Position numbers and translations under genes: made by a program. A stretch of DNA of 64,000 nucleotides from Candidatus Pacearchaeota archaeon (GTDB lineage Archaea > Nanobdellota > Nanobdellia > Pacearchaeales > JAPDKA01). Shown here one piece after another: positions 19,478 through 34,719 of the stretch (its first letter is position 1; the number at the start of each line of letters is the position of its first letter). Location: NCBI GenBank assembly GCA_038840695.1, contig JAWBVE010000002.1, forward strand, positions 28,170 through 92,169, in the 5' to 3' direction. The notes beneath the pieces are model-generated. The model made no database searches and was not told where the DNA came from. It saw nothing but the letters and a program-made list of their open reading frames with translations.

Positions 19478-20653
19478 ATGGGCTTGAATATGGAAAAAGG
19501 ACTGGAAAAAGAGCTTGATAGAAGTGAACTTGAAAAAATACTTGAAAGCTATAGAAGGCTAGGAAGTATAAATAAAACTGTAAAGGAAGTTAGACACAGT
19601 TATCATACCCTTCAGAAATATTTTAAAGATGAGCTTGAAAAAATAAGAAAAGAAAGGCAGGAGGAAAAAGAGCAAAAAATTATTAATGCTTATAAAGAGC
19701 TTGGACAGATTAAGAAAGTAGCTAAATTGCTTAAAGTAGATAGGAAAACTGTAAGGAAAGTATTAAGAAAGCATGGAATTAAGATAAAGCGTTGGAGTGG
19801 TGCGCGTTCTCTAAGTAAGGAGGAGGTTGAAAAGATAATAAAAACCTATGCTGAATTAGGGAATACTAAAAAAACTGCTAAGGCCTTAGGCCATGCTCAA
19901 ATTACTGTAGCCAAATACTGTAGAGAGCACTTTGAGTTAAACAAGATAAATAAAGTGAGAAGAAAATATGATTGGGAAAAAATAAGGGAGCTATATTATA
20001 AATATGACAGGCCTAAGGATGCTGCAAGAGAAATTGGTTGCTCACCAAAAACTGTAAGAGAAGTTTGGCACAAGTTTGGGCTACATGTACAGAGAAAAAA
20101 GCCAAAAATTAATGAAACTGAAATTTATAATATAAAGAAAAGATATTTTAATGGAGAAGGCATAGTAAATATATCGCGTGATCTAAAAAGAAGGACAGAT
20201 GTAATTATGAAGTACCTTAATTGGACTCCTTTGAGTGAAGGTTTGATCTTTTGTTTTTATGATAATGGAGATAAAGTAAAGAAAAGCATAGAAACAGTCA
20301 CAAACATAATAGAAAAATATGCTGAATGCACAGAAAAAATTTATTCGGATAGGCCTGAGTATGAAAAATATTACAAGATTGCTAACGAGATTTTTCCAGG
20401 AAAATTTAAGGAAATACTAATCATTTCATTCAAAAAAAGAAGCGATGAGGGCTTGGAGGAAAGGATTGAGAGCTATATAAAATTCAGACAATTGTGCTCA
20501 GAAGTAATCAATTTTTTTGCACGAAACAACATACAACTTGAGCTTTTTACACAGGAAATTTCTAAAGCAACTTACTATACTCTCTTTCCTGAAGCATCTA
20601 AAACCTTTTATGAATTTGATCAAAAAGGTGAAGGTGTTGAGCAGAGCATTTAA
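19478..20653 (+). CDS. Tandem multi-HTH DNA-binding protein
   Basis: About five repeats of I...Y..LG.....A..L.....TV; unassigned C-terminal domain. Confidence 0.7.
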   Translation: MGLNMEKGLEKELDRSELEKILESYRRLGSINKTVKEVRHSYHTLQKYFKDELEKIRKERQEEKEQKIINAYKELGQIKKVAKLLKVDRKTVRKVLRKHGIKIKRWSGARSLSKEEVEKIIKTYAELGNTKKTAKALGHAQITVAKYCREHFELNKINKVRRKYDWEKIRELYYKYDRPKDAAREIGCSPKTVREVWHKFGLHVQRKKPKINETEIYNIKKRYFNGEGIVNISRDLKRRTDVIMKYLNWTPLSEGLIFCFYDNGDKVKKSIETVTNIIEKYAECTEKIYSDRPEYEKYYKIANEIFPGKFKEILIISFKKRSDEGLEERIESYIKFRQLCSEVINFFARNNIQLELFTQEISKATYYTLFPEASKTFYEFDQKGEGVEQSI

Positions 20654-20725: not shown

Positions 20726-21352
20726 ATGTTTTTTAATTTTTTCAAAAAAAGAAAACTTGAAAGCGAGATTGAAAAATTAAAGGAAGTAATGAAGAATTCT
20801 TTTTCAAATGTAAAGGATGATTTAAATAAAATTTCCAGTTGGATTTTTTATTTGAATGAAAAAGATAAAGATCTCGACGAGAAAATTAGCAAATTACAGG
20901 AAGAAATTGAAGAAATAAAAGAGCTGCTAGCCTTTTCGTCAGGGGCGTTTAAACAGGTGTTTAAACAGGTGTTTAAACACCAAACAGCTGTTGAAGGTGT
21001 TCAAACAGCTGTTCAAACAGGTGTTCAAACACCAAAAATTAATAAAAAATTAACAAAGTTAGCAACAAAAAATATAATTTTGGAAGGCTTAACATTAATG
21101 GAAAGAGCAATTTTGTGGGTATTGGCAAACACTGACTTAAAGCTAAGTTGTGAAGATATCGCAAGAGTGCTTGGAAAAAGTGAAAACACAATAAGAGGAC
21201 AACTAAATAGCCTTAAGTCAAAGTGGCCACAGCTAATAAATGAAATAATTGAAAAAAATGGAAAAAAGAGATATTATATTGATGAAAGAACAAAAGAGCT
21301 TATTTTTAAAATAACAAAGACAAAAATTAAAGCTAAAATAAAATTACGTTAA
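20726..21352 (+). CDS. Coiled-coil / repeat linker / C-terminal winged-helix protein
   Basis: N-terminal SF..VK.D coiled coil; C-terminal LT..ER.IL...LS..DIA..LGKS..TIRGQLN.L wHTH. Confidence 0.75.
   Translation: MFFNFFKKRKLESEIEKLKEVMKNSFSNVKDDLNKISSWIFYLNEKDKDLDEKISKLQEEIEEIKELLAFSSGAFKQVFKQVFKHQTAVEGVQTAVQTGVQTPKINKKLTKLATKNIILEGLTLMERAILWVLANTDLKLSCEDIARVLGKSENTIRGQLNSLKSKWPQLINEIIEKNGKKRYYIDERTKELIFKITKTKIKAKIKLR
20947..21034 (+). repeat. Two blocks of three 12-bp tandem repeats (consensus GTTYAAACAGST) with palindromic core
   Basis: Copies start at 20947, 20959, 20971 and 20999, 21011, 21023. Confidence 0.9.
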
Positions 21353-21828: not shown

Positions 21829-22722
21829 TTAGTCGAGCTGCTCAAGGGCTTCGAGGCTTGATATCTTTAATATTTCTCTCGGAATTGAAAGAAAAACTTC
21901 CTTGCTATGATAGCATTCTTTCTGAATTGGAATGCCTTTAAGAATTAGCCTATTTACAAGGTCTCTAACAGAACTTGGAGCAAGGCCTGTTTTCTCTGCA
22001 AGGGTTTTGTAGCTTATCTTTAAGCCTGCCTGCTGCATAGAATAGATAAGCACAAATATCTCAAATTCTTTCTTTGTTAAAGATTTAAAACGCCTTGCAA
22101 GGATTTTTTTATAATTATTAACCATATGCTCGATTTTTTCGAGCTCAGCTTTGTTTTCTTGCTCTTGTTGCTGAAGAGGGCCAAGGCTTTGTAAATGCTC
22201 TTGTTGTTCTTGTGACTGTTGCCCTCGCTGTTGTTGCTGCTGTGGCTGCTGTAGTTGTTGTGGTTGCAGCTGTTTCAATTGCTGTGACTCTTGCATTTCT
22301 TTAAAGGTTTTGGCTTGAATTTCAGAGTTTTGTTGGTTTTGTTGTATAGTGGAGATTGGCGAAAGGTTCGTTTTAATTTGACGTAGGATTGACGTAGATC
22401 TGTTGGAAATGTGTTGGAAATGTGTTGGAACCCCTTCATTTCCTTTGGAACGGCTGAAATAAGGCTTATTTCCTTCAATTTTTTCTTTATTTTGCATAGG
22501 AAATAAAGGTGTGTTGGAAATGTGTTGGAAATGTGTTGGAAATGTGTTGGAATTTTCCAACACATGTTTATACGAACTTTTCAGCATATTCTTAGCAATT
22601 TCTAGTTCCTTCTTTATAGTTTCTAAATCCCTTCGCATCATAAGAAGTTCATTAAAAATAAAATTAATATCTTGCTTCACAGCCGCAAAAGCTTTCTTTA
22701 TTTTTTCTTCTTCCTTTTCCAT
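21829..22722 (-). CDS. Coiled-coil / repeat and poly-Q linker / C-terminal winged-helix protein (candidate origin-associated factor)
   Basis: N-terminal AF..VKQD coiled coil; C-terminal LT.KE..IF..IY...SYK.LA.K..L..SSVRD.V..L..KG wHTH. Confidence 0.75.
   Translation of the reverse strand: MEKEEEKIKKAFAAVKQDINFIFNELLMMRRDLETIKKELEIAKNMLKSSYKHVLENSNTFPTHFQHISNTPLFPMQNKEKIEGNKPYFSRSKGNEGVPTHFQHISNRSTSILRQIKTNLSPISTIQQNQQNSEIQAKTFKEMQESQQLKQLQPQQLQQPQQQQQRGQQSQEQQEHLQSLGPLQQQEQENKAELEKIEHMVNNYKKILARRFKSLTKKEFEIFVLIYSMQQAGLKISYKTLAEKTGLAPSSVRDLVNRLILKGIPIQKECYHSKEVFLSIPREILKISSLEALEQLD
22378..22565. repeat. 11-bp iteron-like repeats (TGTTGGAAATG x3 and x4 plus one inverted copy; TTGACGTAG x2) flanking an inverted ORB-like pair
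   Basis: Copies at 22401, 22412, 22423; 22512, 22523, 22534, 22545; inverted TTCCAACACAT at 22555-22565. Confidence 0.9.
22430..22512. promoter_or_regulatory. Inverted ORB-like pair around a T-rich spacer (intragenic origin candidate)
   Basis: Minus strand 22430-22451 reads GTTCCAAAGGAAATGAAGGGGT; plus strand 22492-22512 reads TTGCATAGGAAATAAAGGTGT. Confidence 0.65.
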
Positions 22723-24509: not shown

Positions 24510-27188
24510 ATGCCAAACGAAAACATAAAGCTGATAGAAAAGCCGAGTAGTAAGGAAGAATTACTTAGCATATTACATCCTCTAGTTAAAGAGTGGTTTT
24601 TTTCCAGATTCAAAGAATTTAGTTTGCCTCAACTTTATGGGGTGTTGCCAATATGGAAAAGACAAAATATACTCATAAGTGCTCCGACTGGAGGCACGAA
24701 AACACTAACTGCCTTTCTTGCCATAATAAATTATCTTGTTGGCCTTGCAGAAAAACATGAGTTGGAAGATAAAATCTATGCACTCTATGTTAGTCCTCTT
24801 AGAGCCTTAAACAATGACATTCTTGTCAATCTTAAAATACCCCTCACCGAAATAGCACAGCTTGCAAGAAAAAAAGGAATTAAGCTGCAAGAAATAAGAA
24901 TTGGTTTGAGAACAAGTGATACGAGCATAGATGAAAAAGCGAAACAGCTAAAGAGGCCACCGCATATTTTAATAACAACTCCAGAGAGTCTTGCAATAAT
25001 CTTAAGTAGCAAAAGATTTATTGAAAGACTAAAAGCTGTTGAATTTGTTGTTGTAGATGAAATACATGCATTAGCAAACAAGCGAGGGGCCCATCTAAGC
25101 TTGAGCCTTGAACGGCTTAGTAATATTTCAGCAATAGAGCCTGTAAGGATTGGCCTAAGTGCAACAATAGCTCCTCTCGAGGAAGTTGCAAAGTTTTTAG
25201 TTGGCTATCACTGGAATCCTGCCAGCAATAGCTTTGAACAAAGGCCTTGCTTAATAGCTGATGCAAGATTTGCTAAGCCGATTGAAGTTAGTGTTTTAAT
25301 GCCGACAGGCTTTTTTGAAAATGCTGAAATACAAAGTACAAAGCTATATAGCTTAATGAATGAGCTCATTCAGAAGCATAGCACAACGCTTATTTTTACA
25401 AATACAAGAAGTGGAACAGAAAGGGTTATAGAGCATTTAAAAGAACGCTTTCCAAGACAATATGAAGCAATTGATGGAAGTGGTAGTAGCATTGGTGCAC
25501 ACCACTCAAGCCTTAGCAGAAGGCTTCGCTTTGAAATAGAAAAAAGGTTAAGAGAGGGAAAGTTAAAGGCGATTGTGAGCAGCACTAGCCTTGAGCTTGG
25601 CATCGACATAGGCTTTATTGATCTAGTGCTTTTGCTTGGAAGTCCGAAAAGTATTGCAAGAGCAAGTCAAAGAATCGGAAGAAGTGGTCATAAGCTTCAT
25701 GAAAAAGCTCGTGGCATTTTCTTAGTTCTTGATAGAGACGATTTGATTGAATGCAGCATAATGGCTAAAAAAATTATTGAAGGAGAAATTGATAAAGTGC
25801 AAATTCCAAAAAATTGCCTTGATGTGCTATGCCAGCATGTTTATGGAGAAGCTATAAATAAAGTATGGCACGTCGATGATTTTTATAGGCTTGTGAGGCA
25901 AAGTTATTGCTTTAATGGCCTAAGCAAAGAACAGCTTCTAAATGTGATTTCATATCTTAGCGGGCAATATTTTGGTTTAGAGCAGAAAGGAATTTATGCT
26001 AAAATATGGTATGATGAAAACACAAGACAATTTGGCAGGCGTTCAAAGCTTGCAAGAATGCTTTATATGACTAATCTTGGTGTTATTCCTGAAGAAAGCT
26101 ATGTGAATGTTATCATAGCAGTGCCAAGAGAAAGAAAGGATGAAAAAATAGGGGTTATTGATGAGGCTTTCCTAGAAAGACTTAAGCCGGGCGATGTTTT
26201 TGTGCTTGGTGGAGAAAAATATATGTTCATGCATGCAAGGGGCATGAATGCCTATGTTAATGCTTCAGTAAAACAGCCTCCAACTATTCCTAGCTGGTTT
26301 AGTGAAATGCTACCTTTAAGCTTTGATTTGGCAAGAGCCATAGCACAATTTAGAGCTTTAATGGAACAAAAGCTAAGACAACTAAACAAAAAAGAAACAA
26401 AGGCATCAATAATAGAATGGATAAAAGCTTATTGTCATTGCAATGAAAATGTAGCTAGAGAAATTTATGATTATTTTTATGAGCAGTTTTGCTATGCTGA
26501 AATACCTCACTCAAGAAAACTTTTGATAGAGCTTTATAAAGCTGTAGATGGCAAAAAATATTGGATTTTTCATAGCTTATATGGCCGACGTGTTAACGAT
26601 GCATTAAGCCGAGCTCTCGCTTTTTTAACAGCAAAGCTAAGCCATCGCGATATTGAGATAGGAATAAATGATAACGGCTTTTATCTAGCTAGCTATGATC
26701 AAATCCAGGTTGAAAGAGCTCTCGAGGCTTTAATAAAAAATTGGCAAAAGCTTGAGATGATTTTAAATGAAGCTATAGAAAAAACTGAAGTCTTTAAAAG
26801 AAGATTTAGGCATAATGCTGTTAGAAGCTTTTTAATTTTAAAAAGCTATATGGGAAAAACAAAGAGTGCTGGAAAACTACAACTTCAATCTGACATGCTT
26901 TACAGCTCTGTAAAAGCCATAAGCCCAAATTTTCCTGTAATAGCTGAAACTCGACGTGAGGTTCTTGAGGATGTTATGGATATAGCGAATGCAAAGCTTG
27001 TTCTTGAACAAATAGCAAGCAAAAAAATTGAAATAAAAAAGATAACAACAGACCTCCCAAGCCCCTTTGCCCTTAACTTAGTTGCGCAGGGCTATCTTGA
27101 TTTGTTAAAGATAGAGGACAGAATTGAATTTTTGAGAAGAATGCATGAAAAAATCTTGGAAAGAATAGAAAAGAAAAAGGGCAATTAA
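24510..27188 (+). CDS. lhr: Lhr-family ATP-dependent helicase
   Basis: APTGGTKT (variant Walker A), ITTPESL, DEIH, LSAT, SLELGIDIG, QRIGRSGH and PSPFA motifs. Confidence 0.93.
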   Translation: MPNENIKLIEKPSSKEELLSILHPLVKEWFFSRFKEFSLPQLYGVLPIWKRQNILISAPTGGTKTLTAFLAIINYLVGLAEKHELEDKIYALYVSPLRALNNDILVNLKIPLTEIAQLARKKGIKLQEIRIGLRTSDTSIDEKAKQLKRPPHILITTPESLAIILSSKRFIERLKAVEFVVVDEIHALANKRGAHLSLSLERLSNISAIEPVRIGLSATIAPLEEVAKFLVGYHWNPASNSFEQRPCLIADARFAKPIEVSVLMPTGFFENAEIQSTKLYSLMNELIQKHSTTLIFTNTRSGTERVIEHLKERFPRQYEAIDGSGSSIGAHHSSLSRRLRFEIEKRLREGKLKAIVSSTSLELGIDIGFIDLVLLLGSPKSIARASQRIGRSGHKLHEKARGIFLVLDRDDLIECSIMAKKIIEGEIDKVQIPKNCLDVLCQHVYGEAINKVWHVDDFYRLVRQSYCFNGLSKEQLLNVISYLSGQYFGLEQKGIYAKIWYDENTRQFGRRSKLARMLYMTNLGVIPEESYVNVIIAVPRERKDEKIGVIDEAFLERLKPGDVFVLGGEKYMFMHARGMNAYVNASVKQPPTIPSWFSEMLPLSFDLARAIAQFRALMEQKLRQLNKKETKASIIEWIKAYCHCNENVAREIYDYFYEQFCYAEIPHSRKLLIELYKAVDGKKYWIFHSLYGRRVNDALSRALAFLTAKLSHRDIEIGINDNGFYLASYDQIQVERALEALIKNWQKLEMILNEAIEKTEVFKRRFRHNAVRSFLILKSYMGKTKSAGKLQLQSDMLYSSVKAISPNFPVIAETRREVLEDVMDIANAKLVLEQIASKKIEIKKITTDLPSPFALNLVAQGYLDLLKIEDRIEFLRRMHEKILERIEKKKGN

Positions 27189-31610: not shown

Positions 31611-31910
31611 CATCCCCTTTATTTCTTTTGGAGAAAAATTTAAAAATGGGTTAAATTTTTCTGTAGGCTTGATAGAAAAAATTTAAAAATTTTATTGTTT
31701 TATAATATATATTTCAACGATGTACATAATTAAACATTATTTTTTATAATACTATTTTTTTATCCACACTTTTACTATTTATAACATTATGTTGCAGCTA
31801 TTCAAAAGAAAAATAAGGGTTTTTTTAATTTCTTATGGAAAAAAGATCTCAGCTTTATGAATAAAAAATTTCGACGTAACTTTAAAGGAGTTTCCACAGG
31901 AAATATAGCA
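31611..31910. promoter_or_regulatory. Candidate replication origin upstream of cdc6
   Basis: ORB-like TCCAAAAGAAATAAAGGGG (minus, 31614-31632), TTCAAAAGAAAAATAAGGGT (31801-31820) and TTCCACAGGAAATATAG (31892-31908) around a very AT-rich stretch. Confidence 0.7.
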
Positions 31911-31969
31911 GGCAGATACTAATATTAAATTTCAATAATCTTTAAAAAGCCTAGAATTTGTATGGCATT

Positions 31970-33166
31970 ATGAATTTTAAACTTGACAAGATATTTGACA
32001 ATGTAATAAAAAAAAGCATTTTCCAAAACAAGTCAGTTTTACTTTCAGATCATACACCTACTACAATTTTGCATAGAGAGCAACAAATAAAACAGGTAGC
32101 AAAAATACTTTCATGTGCGCTTAGATTAGAGAAGCCAAGCAATCTTTTTATTTATGGCAAAACAGGAACCGGCAAAACACTAGTCATAAAATATATCATT
32201 AACGAATTATTAAAAAAAACTAAAGAGCTTAATTTGGCTTTAAATATAATTTATACGAATTGCAAATTAAAAAAAGTTTCAGATACTGAGTATAGAATAA
32301 TAGCAGAACTTATAAATTTGCTTGGTAGCAAAGTTCCAGCGACAGGCTTGCCTACAGACCAAGTTTATAAAAAATTTATTGAGCTAGTAGATGAAAAGCA
32401 GCAACTTTTGATTATAGTACTAGATGAGATAGATGAAGCTGTAAAGAAGATTGGTGATGCTTTCCTATATAATTTAACAAGGCTTAATTCAGAGCTCATA
32501 AATTCCCAAATAAGCCTTGTTGGGATAAGCAATGATTTAACTTTTCTTGATTCGCTTGATCCTCGTGTTAAATCAAGTTTAAGTGAGGAGGAACTAGTTT
32601 TTCCACCATACAATGCATTACAACTTCAAGATATATTGAGAGAAAGGGCAAAAAGAGCTTTCAAGAGAGGAGCAATAAGTAAAGGAGTTATTGAAAAAAT
32701 AGCAGCGCTGGCAGCAAAAGAGCATGGTGACGCAAGAAGAGCTATCGATTTACTTAGAGTAGCTGGAGAGCTTGCTGAGCGAGAAGGAAAGCTAAAATTA
32801 ACTCTTGACCTTATTGATAAGGCTATCGAGAAGATAGAGAGAGATAAAATTATTGATTTAGTAGAGACACAACCAAGGCATCATCAGCTAATACTTTTTG
32901 CTATAATCGAGATGGCAGAAAAAAAGGAAAAGGAAAAAATTTACACAGGAGATATTTATAATAAGTACGTCGAGCTTTGTCAAGAGCAAAGGCTTGAGCC
33001 CCTAACTCAAAGAAGAGTAAGTGATATAGTGGCTGAACTTGATATGTTAGGCATAATCAATGCCCAAGTTATAAGCAAAGGCAGATATGGCAGAACGCGA
33101 GAAATAAAAATAAACTTACCTCAAAGCCTAATTCTTAAAATTAAATCAATAATAAACCAGGCATAA
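31970..33166 (+). CDS. cdc6: Orc1/Cdc6 replication initiator
   Basis: GKTGTGKT, LDEID, LDPRVKS, FPPYN, GDARRAIDLLR motifs and C-terminal wHTH with GRYGRT. Confidence 0.96.
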   Translation: MNFKLDKIFDNVIKKSIFQNKSVLLSDHTPTTILHREQQIKQVAKILSCALRLEKPSNLFIYGKTGTGKTLVIKYIINELLKKTKELNLALNIIYTNCKLKKVSDTEYRIIAELINLLGSKVPATGLPTDQVYKKFIELVDEKQQLLIIVLDEIDEAVKKIGDAFLYNLTRLNSELINSQISLVGISNDLTFLDSLDPRVKSSLSEEELVFPPYNALQLQDILRERAKRAFKRGAISKGVIEKIAALAAKEHGDARRAIDLLRVAGELAEREGKLKLTLDLIDKAIEKIERDKIIDLVETQPRHHQLILFAIIEMAEKKEKEKIYTGDIYNKYVELCQEQRLEPLTQRRVSDIVAELDMLGIINAQVISKGRYGRTREIKINLPQSLILKIKSIINQA

Positions 33167-34719
33167 TGGGGGTGGTCAATATTTTTTTGCGGGAAGGTTT
33201 CTTGCTTCAGCCAGATTTAGTGAATTTTATTGATGAGCGCGAAGCATCCGTTATTTTAGAACTTTTAAAAGCAATAAAAGCACCAAGAGTTATTTCGATG
33301 GCATTTCTCAAACAAAATCTAGCTTCATTGATAGTTACTCTTAATTCTTTTCTCGAACTAGGAAAATTTGATAAGGATATGATCTATAATATAAGGCAAA
33401 AACTAAATAAAATAAAACGGGCAAGCAACGAAGAAAAAAAAGATAGAGAAGAAAGCGAAGAAAAAGAAAAAAGAGAGCAAGTTAGCTCTGAAAAAGATTG
33501 TCTCCTAACAACAAAGATTAATGAAGAGATAATAAAACCAAAGAAAATTGAAGTAAAGCATTTTCTTGCCTTTTTTAAGCATAGATATGAATGGTTTAAA
33601 GAACTTCTTCGAGATAGGAGAGAATTAACAAACTTAACATCAATTGATAAATTGCCAATAAACAATCAAAACGTTTCGATAATTGGGATAGTTGCTGAAA
33701 AAAGAGAAACGAAAAATAGAAATGTAATCTTAACACTAGAAGATGGAAAAGGAATAGTAAATGTTCTCATAAATAGAGATAGGGCTGTTTATGAAAAAAG
33801 CAATGAAATTGTGGAAGACGAAGTAATCGGAGTGAAGGGTTTTGGAAATCGAGATATTATTTTTGCTTCGGACATCATTTTTCCCGAGGCAATAAATGTC
33901 AATAATAAAAGTTGTGCTTTAGATAGCAACATACTTTTCATTTCAGATACACATGTTGGAAGTGATAAATTTCTTGAGCCGAATTTAAGAAAAGCGATTA
34001 GGTGGATTAACTGTGAGGAAGGAAGTGAGAAGCAAAAAGAAAAAGCAAAAAAAATAAGCCATATTTTTTTTGTAGGAGATATTGTTGACGGCGTTGGTGT
34101 TTATCCTGGTCAAGAGAATGAACTTGAAATAAAAGATATTATTGAACAATATAAGGCAGCTTATGAGATATTTGATGAGATAAGAAAAGATATAAAATTA
34201 ATATTCATTCCTGGCAATCATGATGCAACAAGATTAACAGAGCCGCAAGTTTTTAATAGCTTCTCTAAACCACTTCAAAAACTTGAGAATGCAGAGTTTT
34301 TGCCCAACCCAACTTATTATAGCATTTATAATTATAAGCTCTTGCTTTATCATGGCTATAGCTTTGATTATTATGCAAATAGTGTTTATAGTCTAAAAGC
34401 AGCCAATGCTTATGCAAATCCAGAGCATTTGTTAAAGTTTTTTCTGAGAAAAAGGCATTTAGCGCCAACACACGGCTCAACAACGTATTCGCCAGCAGAC
34501 GAAGATTTTTTCATAATAAAAAAAATCCCAGATGTTTTTGTTACTGCACATATTCATAAGTCAGCAGTAGGTTACTATAATAACATAGCTTTAATTTCCG
34601 GCTCTTGTTGGCAATCGAAAACCCCTTATCAGGAAAAGTTCGGCCATGTTCCAGATCCCTGTAAGATTCCGATTTTTAATACAAAAACAAAAAAAATCCA
34701 AATCATTGATTTTAGCTAA
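33166..34719 (+). CDS. DNA polymerase D small subunit DP1
   Basis: OB fold; SDTHVGS, GDIVDG.GVYPGQ, PGNHD, YHG, RHLAP.HG and AHIH motifs. Confidence 0.95.
   Translation: MGVVNIFLREGFLLQPDLVNFIDEREASVILELLKAIKAPRVISMAFLKQNLASLIVTLNSFLELGKFDKDMIYNIRQKLNKIKRASNEEKKDREESEEKEKREQVSSEKDCLLTTKINEEIIKPKKIEVKHFLAFFKHRYEWFKELLRDRRELTNLTSIDKLPINNQNVSIIGIVAEKRETKNRNVILTLEDGKGIVNVLINRDRAVYEKSNEIVEDEVIGVKGFGNRDIIFASDIIFPEAINVNNKSCALDSNILFISDTHVGSDKFLEPNLRKAIRWINCEEGSEKQKEKAKKISHIFFVGDIVDGVGVYPGQENELEIKDIIEQYKAAYEIFDEIRKDIKLIFIPGNHDATRLTEPQVFNSFSKPLQKLENAEFLPNPTYYSIYNYKLLLYHGYSFDYYANSVYSLKAANAYANPEHLLKFFLRKRHLAPTHGSTTYSPADEDFFIIKKIPDVFVTAHIHKSAVGYYNNIALISGSCWQSKTPYQEKFGHVPDPCKIPIFNTKTKKIQIIDFS

Follow-up and report, generated by a model that had tools for sequence, protein, structure and literature searches.

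A 64,000-nt stretch of a Candidatus Pacearchaeota archaeon genome (contig JAWBVE010000002.1, positions 28,170 to 92,169; "the window" below) carries, inside a gene for a winged helix-turn-helix (wHTH) protein that we term gene B, a 23-nt word resembling the archaeal origin recognition box (ORB). Judged by codon use and reading frames in related genomes, selection acts on this word as DNA, throughout the order and in some genomes of the other orders of the class; the peptide S-x-G-N-x-G-V is an incidental product of its translation, within a tolerant, disordered linker. The resemblance to the ORB is more than chance, and by its sequence the box is an ORB-type DNA signal. We consider it probable that the box is an auxiliary Orc1/Cdc6 site of a single origin region, an outlying one written in frame near oriC and cdc6.

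The genome of the window (G000) comprises 644,521 bases in 10 contigs, is 85% complete and has a guanine-plus-cytosine (GC) content of about 35%; the window corresponds to C2:28170-92169. We compared it with 40 related genomes from nine families, which gives 41 genomes in all. The 50 box loci consist of 20 that were fetched by protein search and 30 that were chosen via the box pattern itself; the codon counts relied on come from the 20 protein-found loci only and are hence unbiased by the pattern. A 23-nt weight matrix was built from the homologous gene-B boxes.

The box is conserved as a DNA word

Gene B and its box lie in the window as follows.
21829-22722, minus strand: gene B, 297 aa, with an N-terminal helix, a linker and a C-terminal wHTH domain
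22428-22450, minus strand: the strong ORB-type box TTCCAAAGGAAATGAAGGGGTTC, read in frame as (R)SKGNEGV(P), with 0 mismatches to the ORB pattern

The box is present in 20/20 protein-found loci, where the peptide S/Y-x-G-N-x-G-V is written TCC ANA GGA AAY NNN GGG GTT. Serine is TCC in 19/19 cases, the remaining locus having tyrosine (TAC), and the first glycine is GGA, the second glycine GGG and the valine GTT in 20/20 each; the local background use of these codons is 0.11 for TCC, 0.39 for GGA, 0.18 for GGG and 0.51 for GTT. The two variable residues coincide exactly with the N positions of the ORB pattern, and the base preceding TCC is T in 18 of the 20 boxes, independent of the preceding residue. 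As a control, we examined invariant wHTH residues of the same genes (45 genes, 30 of them from the pattern search), which vary over 4-6 synonymous codons. An invariant serine is TCT in 26 genes, TCA in 12, AGT in 3, TCC in 2, TCG in 1 and AGC in 1; an invariant arginine uses six codons, and a near-invariant glycine is GGA 21, GGC 17, GGG 3 and GGT 2 times. The preliminary description of this locus had named free synonymous codon use in homologs as the outcome that speaks against a DNA signal. We observed that the box codons are fixed in 20/20 loci while the wHTH codons drift, indicating that the box is a DNA signal and not a protein motif.

A second line of evidence comes from the reading frame. 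In f9, the largest family, 16/30 pattern-found loci have the word twice within a gene, at a distance of 43 nt and in different frames, the upstream copy being read as V-P-Q-E-I-G-G-L-K and the downstream copy as S-T-G-N-x-G-V-P-T. One word kept in two reading frames implies selection on DNA rather than on the peptide.

The word is also widespread. An exact 21-mer occurs in 215/401 genomes of the order, usually in one or two copies and in three in G353, and the backwards control gave 0 throughout. Thirty of these places were fetched, and 27 of them lie in open frames of at least 171 aa; one (L028) is a convergent pair whose other member is in a B frame, and two (L026 and L027) are non-coding and located upstream of cdc6. 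Among the other orders of the class, 15/196 genomes contain the exact 21-mer (control 0). Of ten places fetched there, 4 are in B-like genes, and 6 are in stretches with short open frames only, mostly AT-rich. The B-like genes of these orders share the N-terminal helix motif, contain the peptide S-[IT]-G-N-x-G-V and encode a related wHTH; their repeat is a different one.

Gene B encodes a wHTH protein with a predicted disordered linker

A translated search found gene B in 38/41 genomes, G000 included. None of the matches contains a stop; they are open frames of 176-312 aa, with conserved N- and C-terminal parts and a variable middle. AlphaFold2 modelling with 44 homologs places a long helix at the N-terminus (residues 2-57; predicted local distance difference test score, pLDDT, >90), followed by a repeat- and Q-rich linker that is unstructured from residue 58 to about 165 (pLDDT about 46-59) and by the wHTH at residues 217-296 (pLDDT >95). 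The box residues 92-98 fall in the predicted disordered stretch, with pLDDT of about 50-56, which fits the earlier proposal that the linker peptide is a by-product of the DNA word. The Q-rich tract of the linker (window 22140-22290) is made of CAG/CAA-type repeats on the coding strand, and a contig from another sample has a 9-nt in-frame insertion after 22240, in the region of this tract.

The same residues might be read the other way round, with a short linear motif S-x-G-N-x-G-V-P, or an mRNA structure, as the conserved entity and the ORB likeness as a coincidence. G94, N95, G97 and V98 are indeed invariant in the 44 homologs, and TTCC and GGAA can pair in RNA. Against this stand the fixed synonymous positions of the box, with drift elsewhere in the same genes, the reading of the word in a second frame, its occurrence in non-coding DNA and the position of the peptide in a low-confidence, unstructured stretch. 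The two-frame and codon evidence has already largely refuted this explanation, and we regard it as highly improbable.

The preliminary description named WhiP, a wHTH initiator in Sulfolobus, in connection with the gene-B protein. A likeness to WhiP is not supported by the searches, all of which returned generic MarR/ArsR-type wHTH domains at most: Pfam gave weak generic helix-turn-helix (HTH) matches, including HTH_24; the profile search of the Protein Data Bank (PDB) gave generic regulators and coiled coils with a best E of 0.019; and the top Foldseek matches were MarR/ArsR-type wHTH proteins (E about 1e-3). No WhiP-, Cdt1- or Orc-specific likeness was seen in the PDB and Foldseek searches. 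The names of 14 homolog matches, where given, are "hypothetical protein" or "MarR family".

The box is the strongest of its type in the genome

In its long form, the ORB has a G-run a few bases 3' of the dyad. Such a run is present here (...ATGAAGGGGTT in G000), and GGGG is fixed in 20/20 protein-found homologs. The dyad core TTCC...GAA is present as TTCCAAAGGAAA at 22439-22450 on the minus strand; "TTCC" and "GAA" core motifs are described for the Pyrococcus ORB and mini-ORB in the accessible part of PMC1904270.

We searched for TTCCANNGGAAANNNAGGGG with increasing tolerance. With no more than 1 mismatch allowed, nothing but the box matches anywhere in the 644,521 bases of the genome, and the backwards control gives 0. 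Up to 2 mismatches give five genome matches, four of which make two clusters, one in gene B and the other, likewise a pair, upstream of cdc6. When 3 mismatches are allowed, the window holds 6 matches, compared with a mean of 1.50 and a maximum of 4 in shuffled sequence; 0/100 shuffles reach 6. Consistently, the weight matrix finds only two sites of at least 12 bits in the G000 genome, the box (40.4 bits) and an inverted partner in the same gene, which is the second-best match of the genome. Beyond the B and cdc6-side sites, the matrix detected no other box of at least 4 bits in the window, including the open reading frame (ORF) after cdc6. Taken together with the codon data, these results lead us to infer that Orc1/Cdc6 would bind the gene-B box.

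The box is linked to cdc6 and to a presumed oriC

Three further features of the window concern the initiator gene and its surroundings.
31611-31911, no strand: presumed canonical oriC upstream of cdc6, consisting of a box, a 258-nt spacer of GC 0.20 and a dyad-only box
31958-33166, plus strand: orc1/cdc6 gene (Cdc6_C 5.8e-31, Cdc6_lid 9.1e-24)
33166-34719, no strand given: ORF directly after cdc6, which we take from its position and a reading of its translation to be the small subunit of DNA polymerase D (PolD), dp1

The first cdc6-side box (31611-31633, minus strand) is degenerate and scores 9.3 bits. The second (31892-31911, plus strand) has a near-perfect dyad (22.6 of 25.2 bits) and no G-run, and ends 47 nt before the cdc6 ORF. 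The boxes upstream of cdc6 had been described as resembling those in gene B and arranged in the same way; they exist and share the dyads-inward polarity, but they are weaker and degenerate.

In three relatives, G025, G015 and G020, cdc6 is preceded by the exact 21-mer at a distance of about 120-200 nt, and in G025 this copy is non-coding, with an extremely AT-rich 5' flank, the flank that could be read. The complete G025 genome (575,132 bases) contains two matrix sites of at least 12 bits, in gene B (41.7) and upstream of cdc6 (30.3), and on a 457-kb contig of G036 the only sites of at least 10 bits are again the B box (36.5) and a cdc6-upstream box (16.6). Site strength at B and on the cdc6 side might trade off between lineages.

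Gene B and cdc6 are on one contig in 29 of the 36 genomes having both, 1.8-15 kb apart and divergent in 29/29, so that the dyad end of the B box always faces oriC. In compact genomes the order is gene A (a paralog of B, see below), gene B on the opposite strand, a gene of ~138 aa, an AT-rich tract of 100-140 nt with a GC of 8% or less, weaker boxes, cdc6 and the following ORF. We presume that the AT-rich oriC beside cdc6 in these relatives is the canonical origin.

Strand asymmetry was examined in three genomes. In G000 the skew (GC, GC at third codon positions (GC3) and gene-strand bias; window and contigs C1 and C2) shows no switch. The cumulative skew of G025 has its minimum at 460-468 kb and the locus lies at 443-453 kb, 7-25 kb off on a noisy curve. 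On the 457-kb contig of G036 (C1), cumulative GC3 skew and gene-strand bias rise near-monotonically. No turn is seen there at the cdc6/B locus (~109-112 kb), which would be unusual for bidirectional replication from that place or may reflect transcription-driven skew.

An inverted box pair with 11-nt repeats marks one genus

The remainder of the element surrounds the strong box, and all of it falls within the 297-aa ORF of gene B.
22366-22376, minus strand: the word TTAAAACGAAC, one of three genome matches to TTAAA[ACG]CGAA[CT]
22378-22399, plus strand: second 11-nt repeat, two copies of TTGACGTAG(G/A)(A/T), TACGTCA on the coding strand, outside the left block of 11-mers
22401-22430, plus strand: left block of the 11-nt repeat TGTTGGAAATG, two exact copies (22401-22422) and a truncated third
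22451-22491, no strand: spacer between the dyad ends of the two boxes, 41 nt, GC 0.29
22492-22514, plus strand: weaker inverted partner box TTGCATAGGAAATAAAGGTGTGT, 2 mismatches, 14.2 bits
22512-22565, plus strand: right block of TGTTGGAAATG, three exact copies (22512-22544), a truncated fourth (22545-22552) and an inverted copy (22554-22565)

The truncated third copy on the left is TGTTGGAA (22423-22430), which merges into the G-run end of the box, and the plus strand at 22430-22451 is the reverse complement of GTTCCAAAGGAAATGAAGGGGT. Within the spacer, a palindrome GAAATAAG-G-CTTATTTC occupies 22456-22472. The partner reads TTGCATAGGAAATAAAGGTGT at 22492-22512 on the plus strand and carries GGTG in place of GGGG. 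A repeat search recovered the 11-nt family together with 21-nt inverted arms, 81% complementary and 41 nt apart. The five exact copies of TGTTGGAAATG in the window all lie within 22401-22544; outside the window the genome has one further copy, on contig C8. The inverted ORB-like pair, the palindrome-bearing spacer and the 11-nt repeats are thus present in gene B as the preliminary description had them; its counts of three and four repeats follow the exact layout, except that each total includes one truncated copy.

Contigs of four DNA runs end at the 11-mer repeats, and one contig from another study spans the pair. In this single contig the sole difference within the box is at the N position 22445 (Lys to Ile, Ile being common in relatives), and one more difference lies just outside the box, at 22451.

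The word TTAAA[ACG]CGAA[CT] has three sites in the 644-kb genome, all at the A-B locus: 21405 (plus), 21500 (plus) and 22366 (minus). Related loci were scanned strand by strand, and 14/53 scans found it near the box, at offsets of mostly +63 to +75, or -26, and in one or the other of two reading frames; in family f9 it was not found except in G054.

A scan of the 50 loci found a single box in 27, two direct copies in 17 (at 43 nt in 16 of these) and other inverted arrangements in 4. G012 and G054 have a convergent partner, at +56 and +58. The inverted partner at offset -64 occurs only in G000 and its congener G001 (genus g1; 14.5 bits in G001), that is, in 2/50 loci. By this distribution, a single box is common to the order, and the inverted ORB pair with 11-nt repeats is an elaboration of it within one genus.

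Tandem repeats that start right behind the G-run are a general feature and occur in most lineages. Of the 48-nt segments that follow the box, 12/50 match themselves at 0.75 or more at the best period, and 0/50 control segments taken 400 nt further on do so. The period is 4, 8, 11 or 12 nt depending on lineage, and the words differ: genus g1 has the 11-nt CAT[TC]TCCAACA, families f1, f2 and f4 have other 11-nt units, f9 has (GACA)n and 8-/12-nt derivatives, and other orders have (ATTC)n and others. The TTGACGTAG repeat is also visible in G001 and has three copies in G002. The recognition-helix residues S250, S251, R253, D254 and Y255, in contrast, are invariant or nearly so in the 44 homologs. 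This combination of a near-invariant helix with lineage-varying repeats argues, if only weakly, against a wHTH domain that reads its own iterons. Family f1 (G000, G001 and G002) has L for Y255 and its own repeats, an association confounded by shared ancestry. Sites for a conserved protein are the less likely explanation of the repeats; a linker that evolves fast and is prone to slippage, or a feature of spacing or structure, is more likely.

The preliminary description went further and saw in this element a hybrid origin. An autonomous second origin inside an accessory gene would use the pair to load MCM on the spacer, with the wHTH of B and/or A binding the 11-nt repeats. Several observations fit. 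The dyads of the pair point inward, the polarity of the boxes that flank the AT-richer spacer upstream of the cdc6 of the window and also that of the cdc6 box of G025 with respect to its AT-rich side; G001 has kept the pair, with an unchanged offset; the flanking repeats have an 11-nt period; the paralogs A and B each carry DNA-level repeats in their own linkers; and the boxes near the cdc6 gene of G000 are degenerate and score 9.3 bits at best. Other observations do not. The pair with its repeats is confined to 2/50 loci, relatives having mostly a single box, and a single box is unlikely to be an origin core, because loss of either ORB abolishes the activity of Sulfolobus oriC1 according to the accessible part of PMC12141716. 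The 41-nt spacer has a GC of 0.29, compared with 8% or less in the AT-rich tracts beside cdc6 in relatives and with 0.20 in the 258-nt spacer on the cdc6 side of G000. The recognition helix is near-invariant while the repeats vary, and there is no skew switch at 22 kb. We therefore consider a hybrid or autonomous second origin unlikely. In G000 and G001 the inverted pair could still be a small second origin, at a similarly low probability. Rather doubtful, too, is a fuller version, in which the strongest initiator-binding word of the chromosome sits in a translated gene throughout the order, and in some genomes of other orders, and has become in genus g1 a working origin inside the gene that loads MCM and is flanked by repeats in helical phase, with A and B as accessory factors that read their own coding words; if true, this would be a chromosomal archaeal counterpart of the lambda ori within gene O.

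The paralogous gene A carries its own DNA-level repeats

The neighbouring gene A has the following position.
20726-21352, plus strand: gene A, a 208-aa paralog of B, convergent with B

Alignment of A with B by hhalign gave a probability of 97.6% and an E of 2.8e-12, covering both ends, and A is convergent with B in the loci that were put on plus-strand coordinates (G000, G013 and G039). Its linker holds three copies of GTTCAAACA at 12-nt spacing (20999, 21011 and 21023), spanning 20999-21031. Across 42 repeat units in 15/20 loci, the codon of the variable residue ends in T in 41/42 (background 0.33), Gln is CAA and Thr is ACA in 42/42 each, and Val is never GTA. Positions 1-2 of the variable codon change among relatives while the T at position 3 is kept. 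These figures point to a DNA-level constraint on the A-linker repeats like that in B.

It is conceivable that the box and repeats are operators for the A and B wHTH proteins, acting in autoregulation or as a roadblock, and that the likeness to the ORB is incidental or convergent. Each of the two paralogous genes contains words that are conserved at the DNA level, the recognition helices of the proteins are strongly conserved, which a constant target would demand, and the tandem form of the A-type repeat is found nowhere else in the G000 genome. This explanation nevertheless has to account for the identical 21-mer upstream of cdc6 in G025, G015 and G020, with very AT-rich neighbouring DNA in G025, and for the cdc6-upstream location of the only other matrix sites in G025 and G036. 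In the other orders the word is also in non-coding stretches (6/10 fetched loci), and the box has the TTCC...GAA core of known ORBs. We therefore think it very unlikely that the element consists of operators.

Just upstream of A, a 391-aa ORF (19478-20653, plus strand) contains repeated resolvase/transposase-type HTH modules (HTH_23 1.5e-07, and others). A helicase ORF at 24510-27188 (plus strand), Lhr-like as we judge from its sequence, is syntenic with the A-B pair in L004, L007, L015, L018, L021 and G025. Pfam searches of the neighbouring genes revealed nothing replication-specific except cdc6, and a scan of the window with Rfam at gathering thresholds found three tRNAs only, in agreement with ARAGORN.

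Proposed role of the gene-B box

An auxiliary role of the box within one origin region seems the most likely because most lineages hold one box or two direct ones. In such a scheme, each box would be bound by an Orc1/Cdc6 monomer in a fixed orientation, by means of the winged-helix domain and the initiator-specific motif of the AAA+ domain. In this mode of binding, the winged-helix domain would sit on the TTCCAnAGGAAA dyad and the initiator-specific motif would lie towards the GGGG run. Contacts of archaeal Orc1 with DNA through both parts are described in the accessible portion of PMC3089459, and the binding of monomers to ORBs with a defined polarity in that of PMC12141716. The B box might then act as a high-affinity outlying site that holds or titrates Orc1/Cdc6 near oriC. 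Alternatively, it may cooperate with the cdc6-proximal boxes, as proposed for the cluster in the Pyrococcus dp1 gene (see below), and it might tie transcription of B to initiator occupancy. In genus g1 the inverted pair, with dyads inward and 41 nt apart within an 11-nt array, copies the ORB-spacer-ORB geometry of an origin core.

Several points weigh against this proposal. The exact 21-mer is found in only 215 of the 401 genomes of the order, and the box has variants, namely TAC for TCC (G027), ATC for ANA (G012) and ACT (G011). Occupation of the site by Orc1/Cdc6 is deduced from sequence. The origin-region role relies on linkage over 1.8-15 kb, which conserved synteny alone could explain, and the constant divergence from cdc6 could simply reflect co-orientation with replication. 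GC skew lends no support and does not distinguish between the B and cdc6 sites. Related genomes are non-independent samples, many of them are incomplete, and the weight matrix, being built from B boxes, favours these over the cdc6-proximal ones.

If the auxiliary-site proposal holds, this would be a case of overlapping codes, in which an initiator site fixes seven codons down to their third bases in at least nine families, and an apparent "invariant peptide motif" turns out to be a DNA motif. DNA and peptide function can be separated by synonymous recoding, so that the proposal is directly testable. The word also offers a sequence-defined entry to the origins of uncultivated archaea with tiny genomes, none of which is mapped in the literature searched. 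For annotation it advises caution, since the best ORB of a genome need not mark oriC.

Comparison with known systems

We did not find this arrangement described in the literature searched, which covered ORBs together with DPANN, Nanoarchaeota and intragenic or coding-region sites, with subscription papers outside its scope. In a 2026 preprint on Nanobdellota genomes, ORC1/Cdc6 serves solely as the reference for rotating genomes, and "ORB" has 0 occurrences in its accessible part. Intragenic ORB clusters as such are known from Thermococcales; what is new here is the host gene and lineage, the codon-level and two-frame conservation, the placement of the best box of the genome inside a gene, and paralogous genes that each have DNA words in their linkers.

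The core of Sulfolobus oriC1 consists of inverted ORBs around an AT-rich element, as far as the accessible parts of PMC12141716 and PMC5333045 describe this ORB-unwinding element-ORB type. The gene-B box is of the same type, the pair in G000 and G001 is likewise inverted around a spacer, and in relatives the same word stands beside cdc6, as in a canonical oriC core. The B site differs in being intragenic, translated, 1.8-15 kb from cdc6 and mostly without an inverted partner, and its 41-nt spacer of GC 0.29 is not a long AT-rich unwinding element.

The ori of phage lambda lies in gene O, and the O protein binds its iterons. Here, too, a cis element and tandem repeats are placed in the linker-coding part of the gene of a DNA-binding protein. 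In contrast to lambda, the protein predicted to bind the element in B is not the gene product but Orc1/Cdc6, and the repeats differ from lineage to lineage. In Escherichia coli, datA and DARS are clusters of DnaA boxes outside oriC, and to our knowledge they are not in-frame coding words. The B box resembles them as a predicted high-affinity site that is separate from the unwinding region and could serve in titration or regulation of the initiator; the analogy is functional only, as the domain of life and the initiator are different.

The closest precedent is the cluster of ORBs and mini-ORBs in dp1, the gene of the PolD small subunit, in Pyrococcus and Thermococcus, which the accessible part of Matsunaga et al. 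2007 (PMC1904270) describes as conserved in Thermococcales and as bound by Cdc6/Orc1 in vivo and in vitro by chromatin immunoprecipitation and gel shift. There, as here, boxes lie inside a gene a few kb from oriC and cdc6 across an order, and a role was proposed and not defined. Binding was shown for that cluster and is predicted for the B site. The host in our case is a coiled-coil/wHTH gene upstream of cdc6 with usually one full box or two, and the B box is kept codon for codon and in two frames, is the best box of its genome and is followed by lineage-specific repeats. Our data extend the observation made for dp1 in Pyrococcus, which has seen little follow-up, to a further lineage and host gene and suggest that outlying intragenic Orc1/Cdc6 sites may recur in archaeal origin regions.

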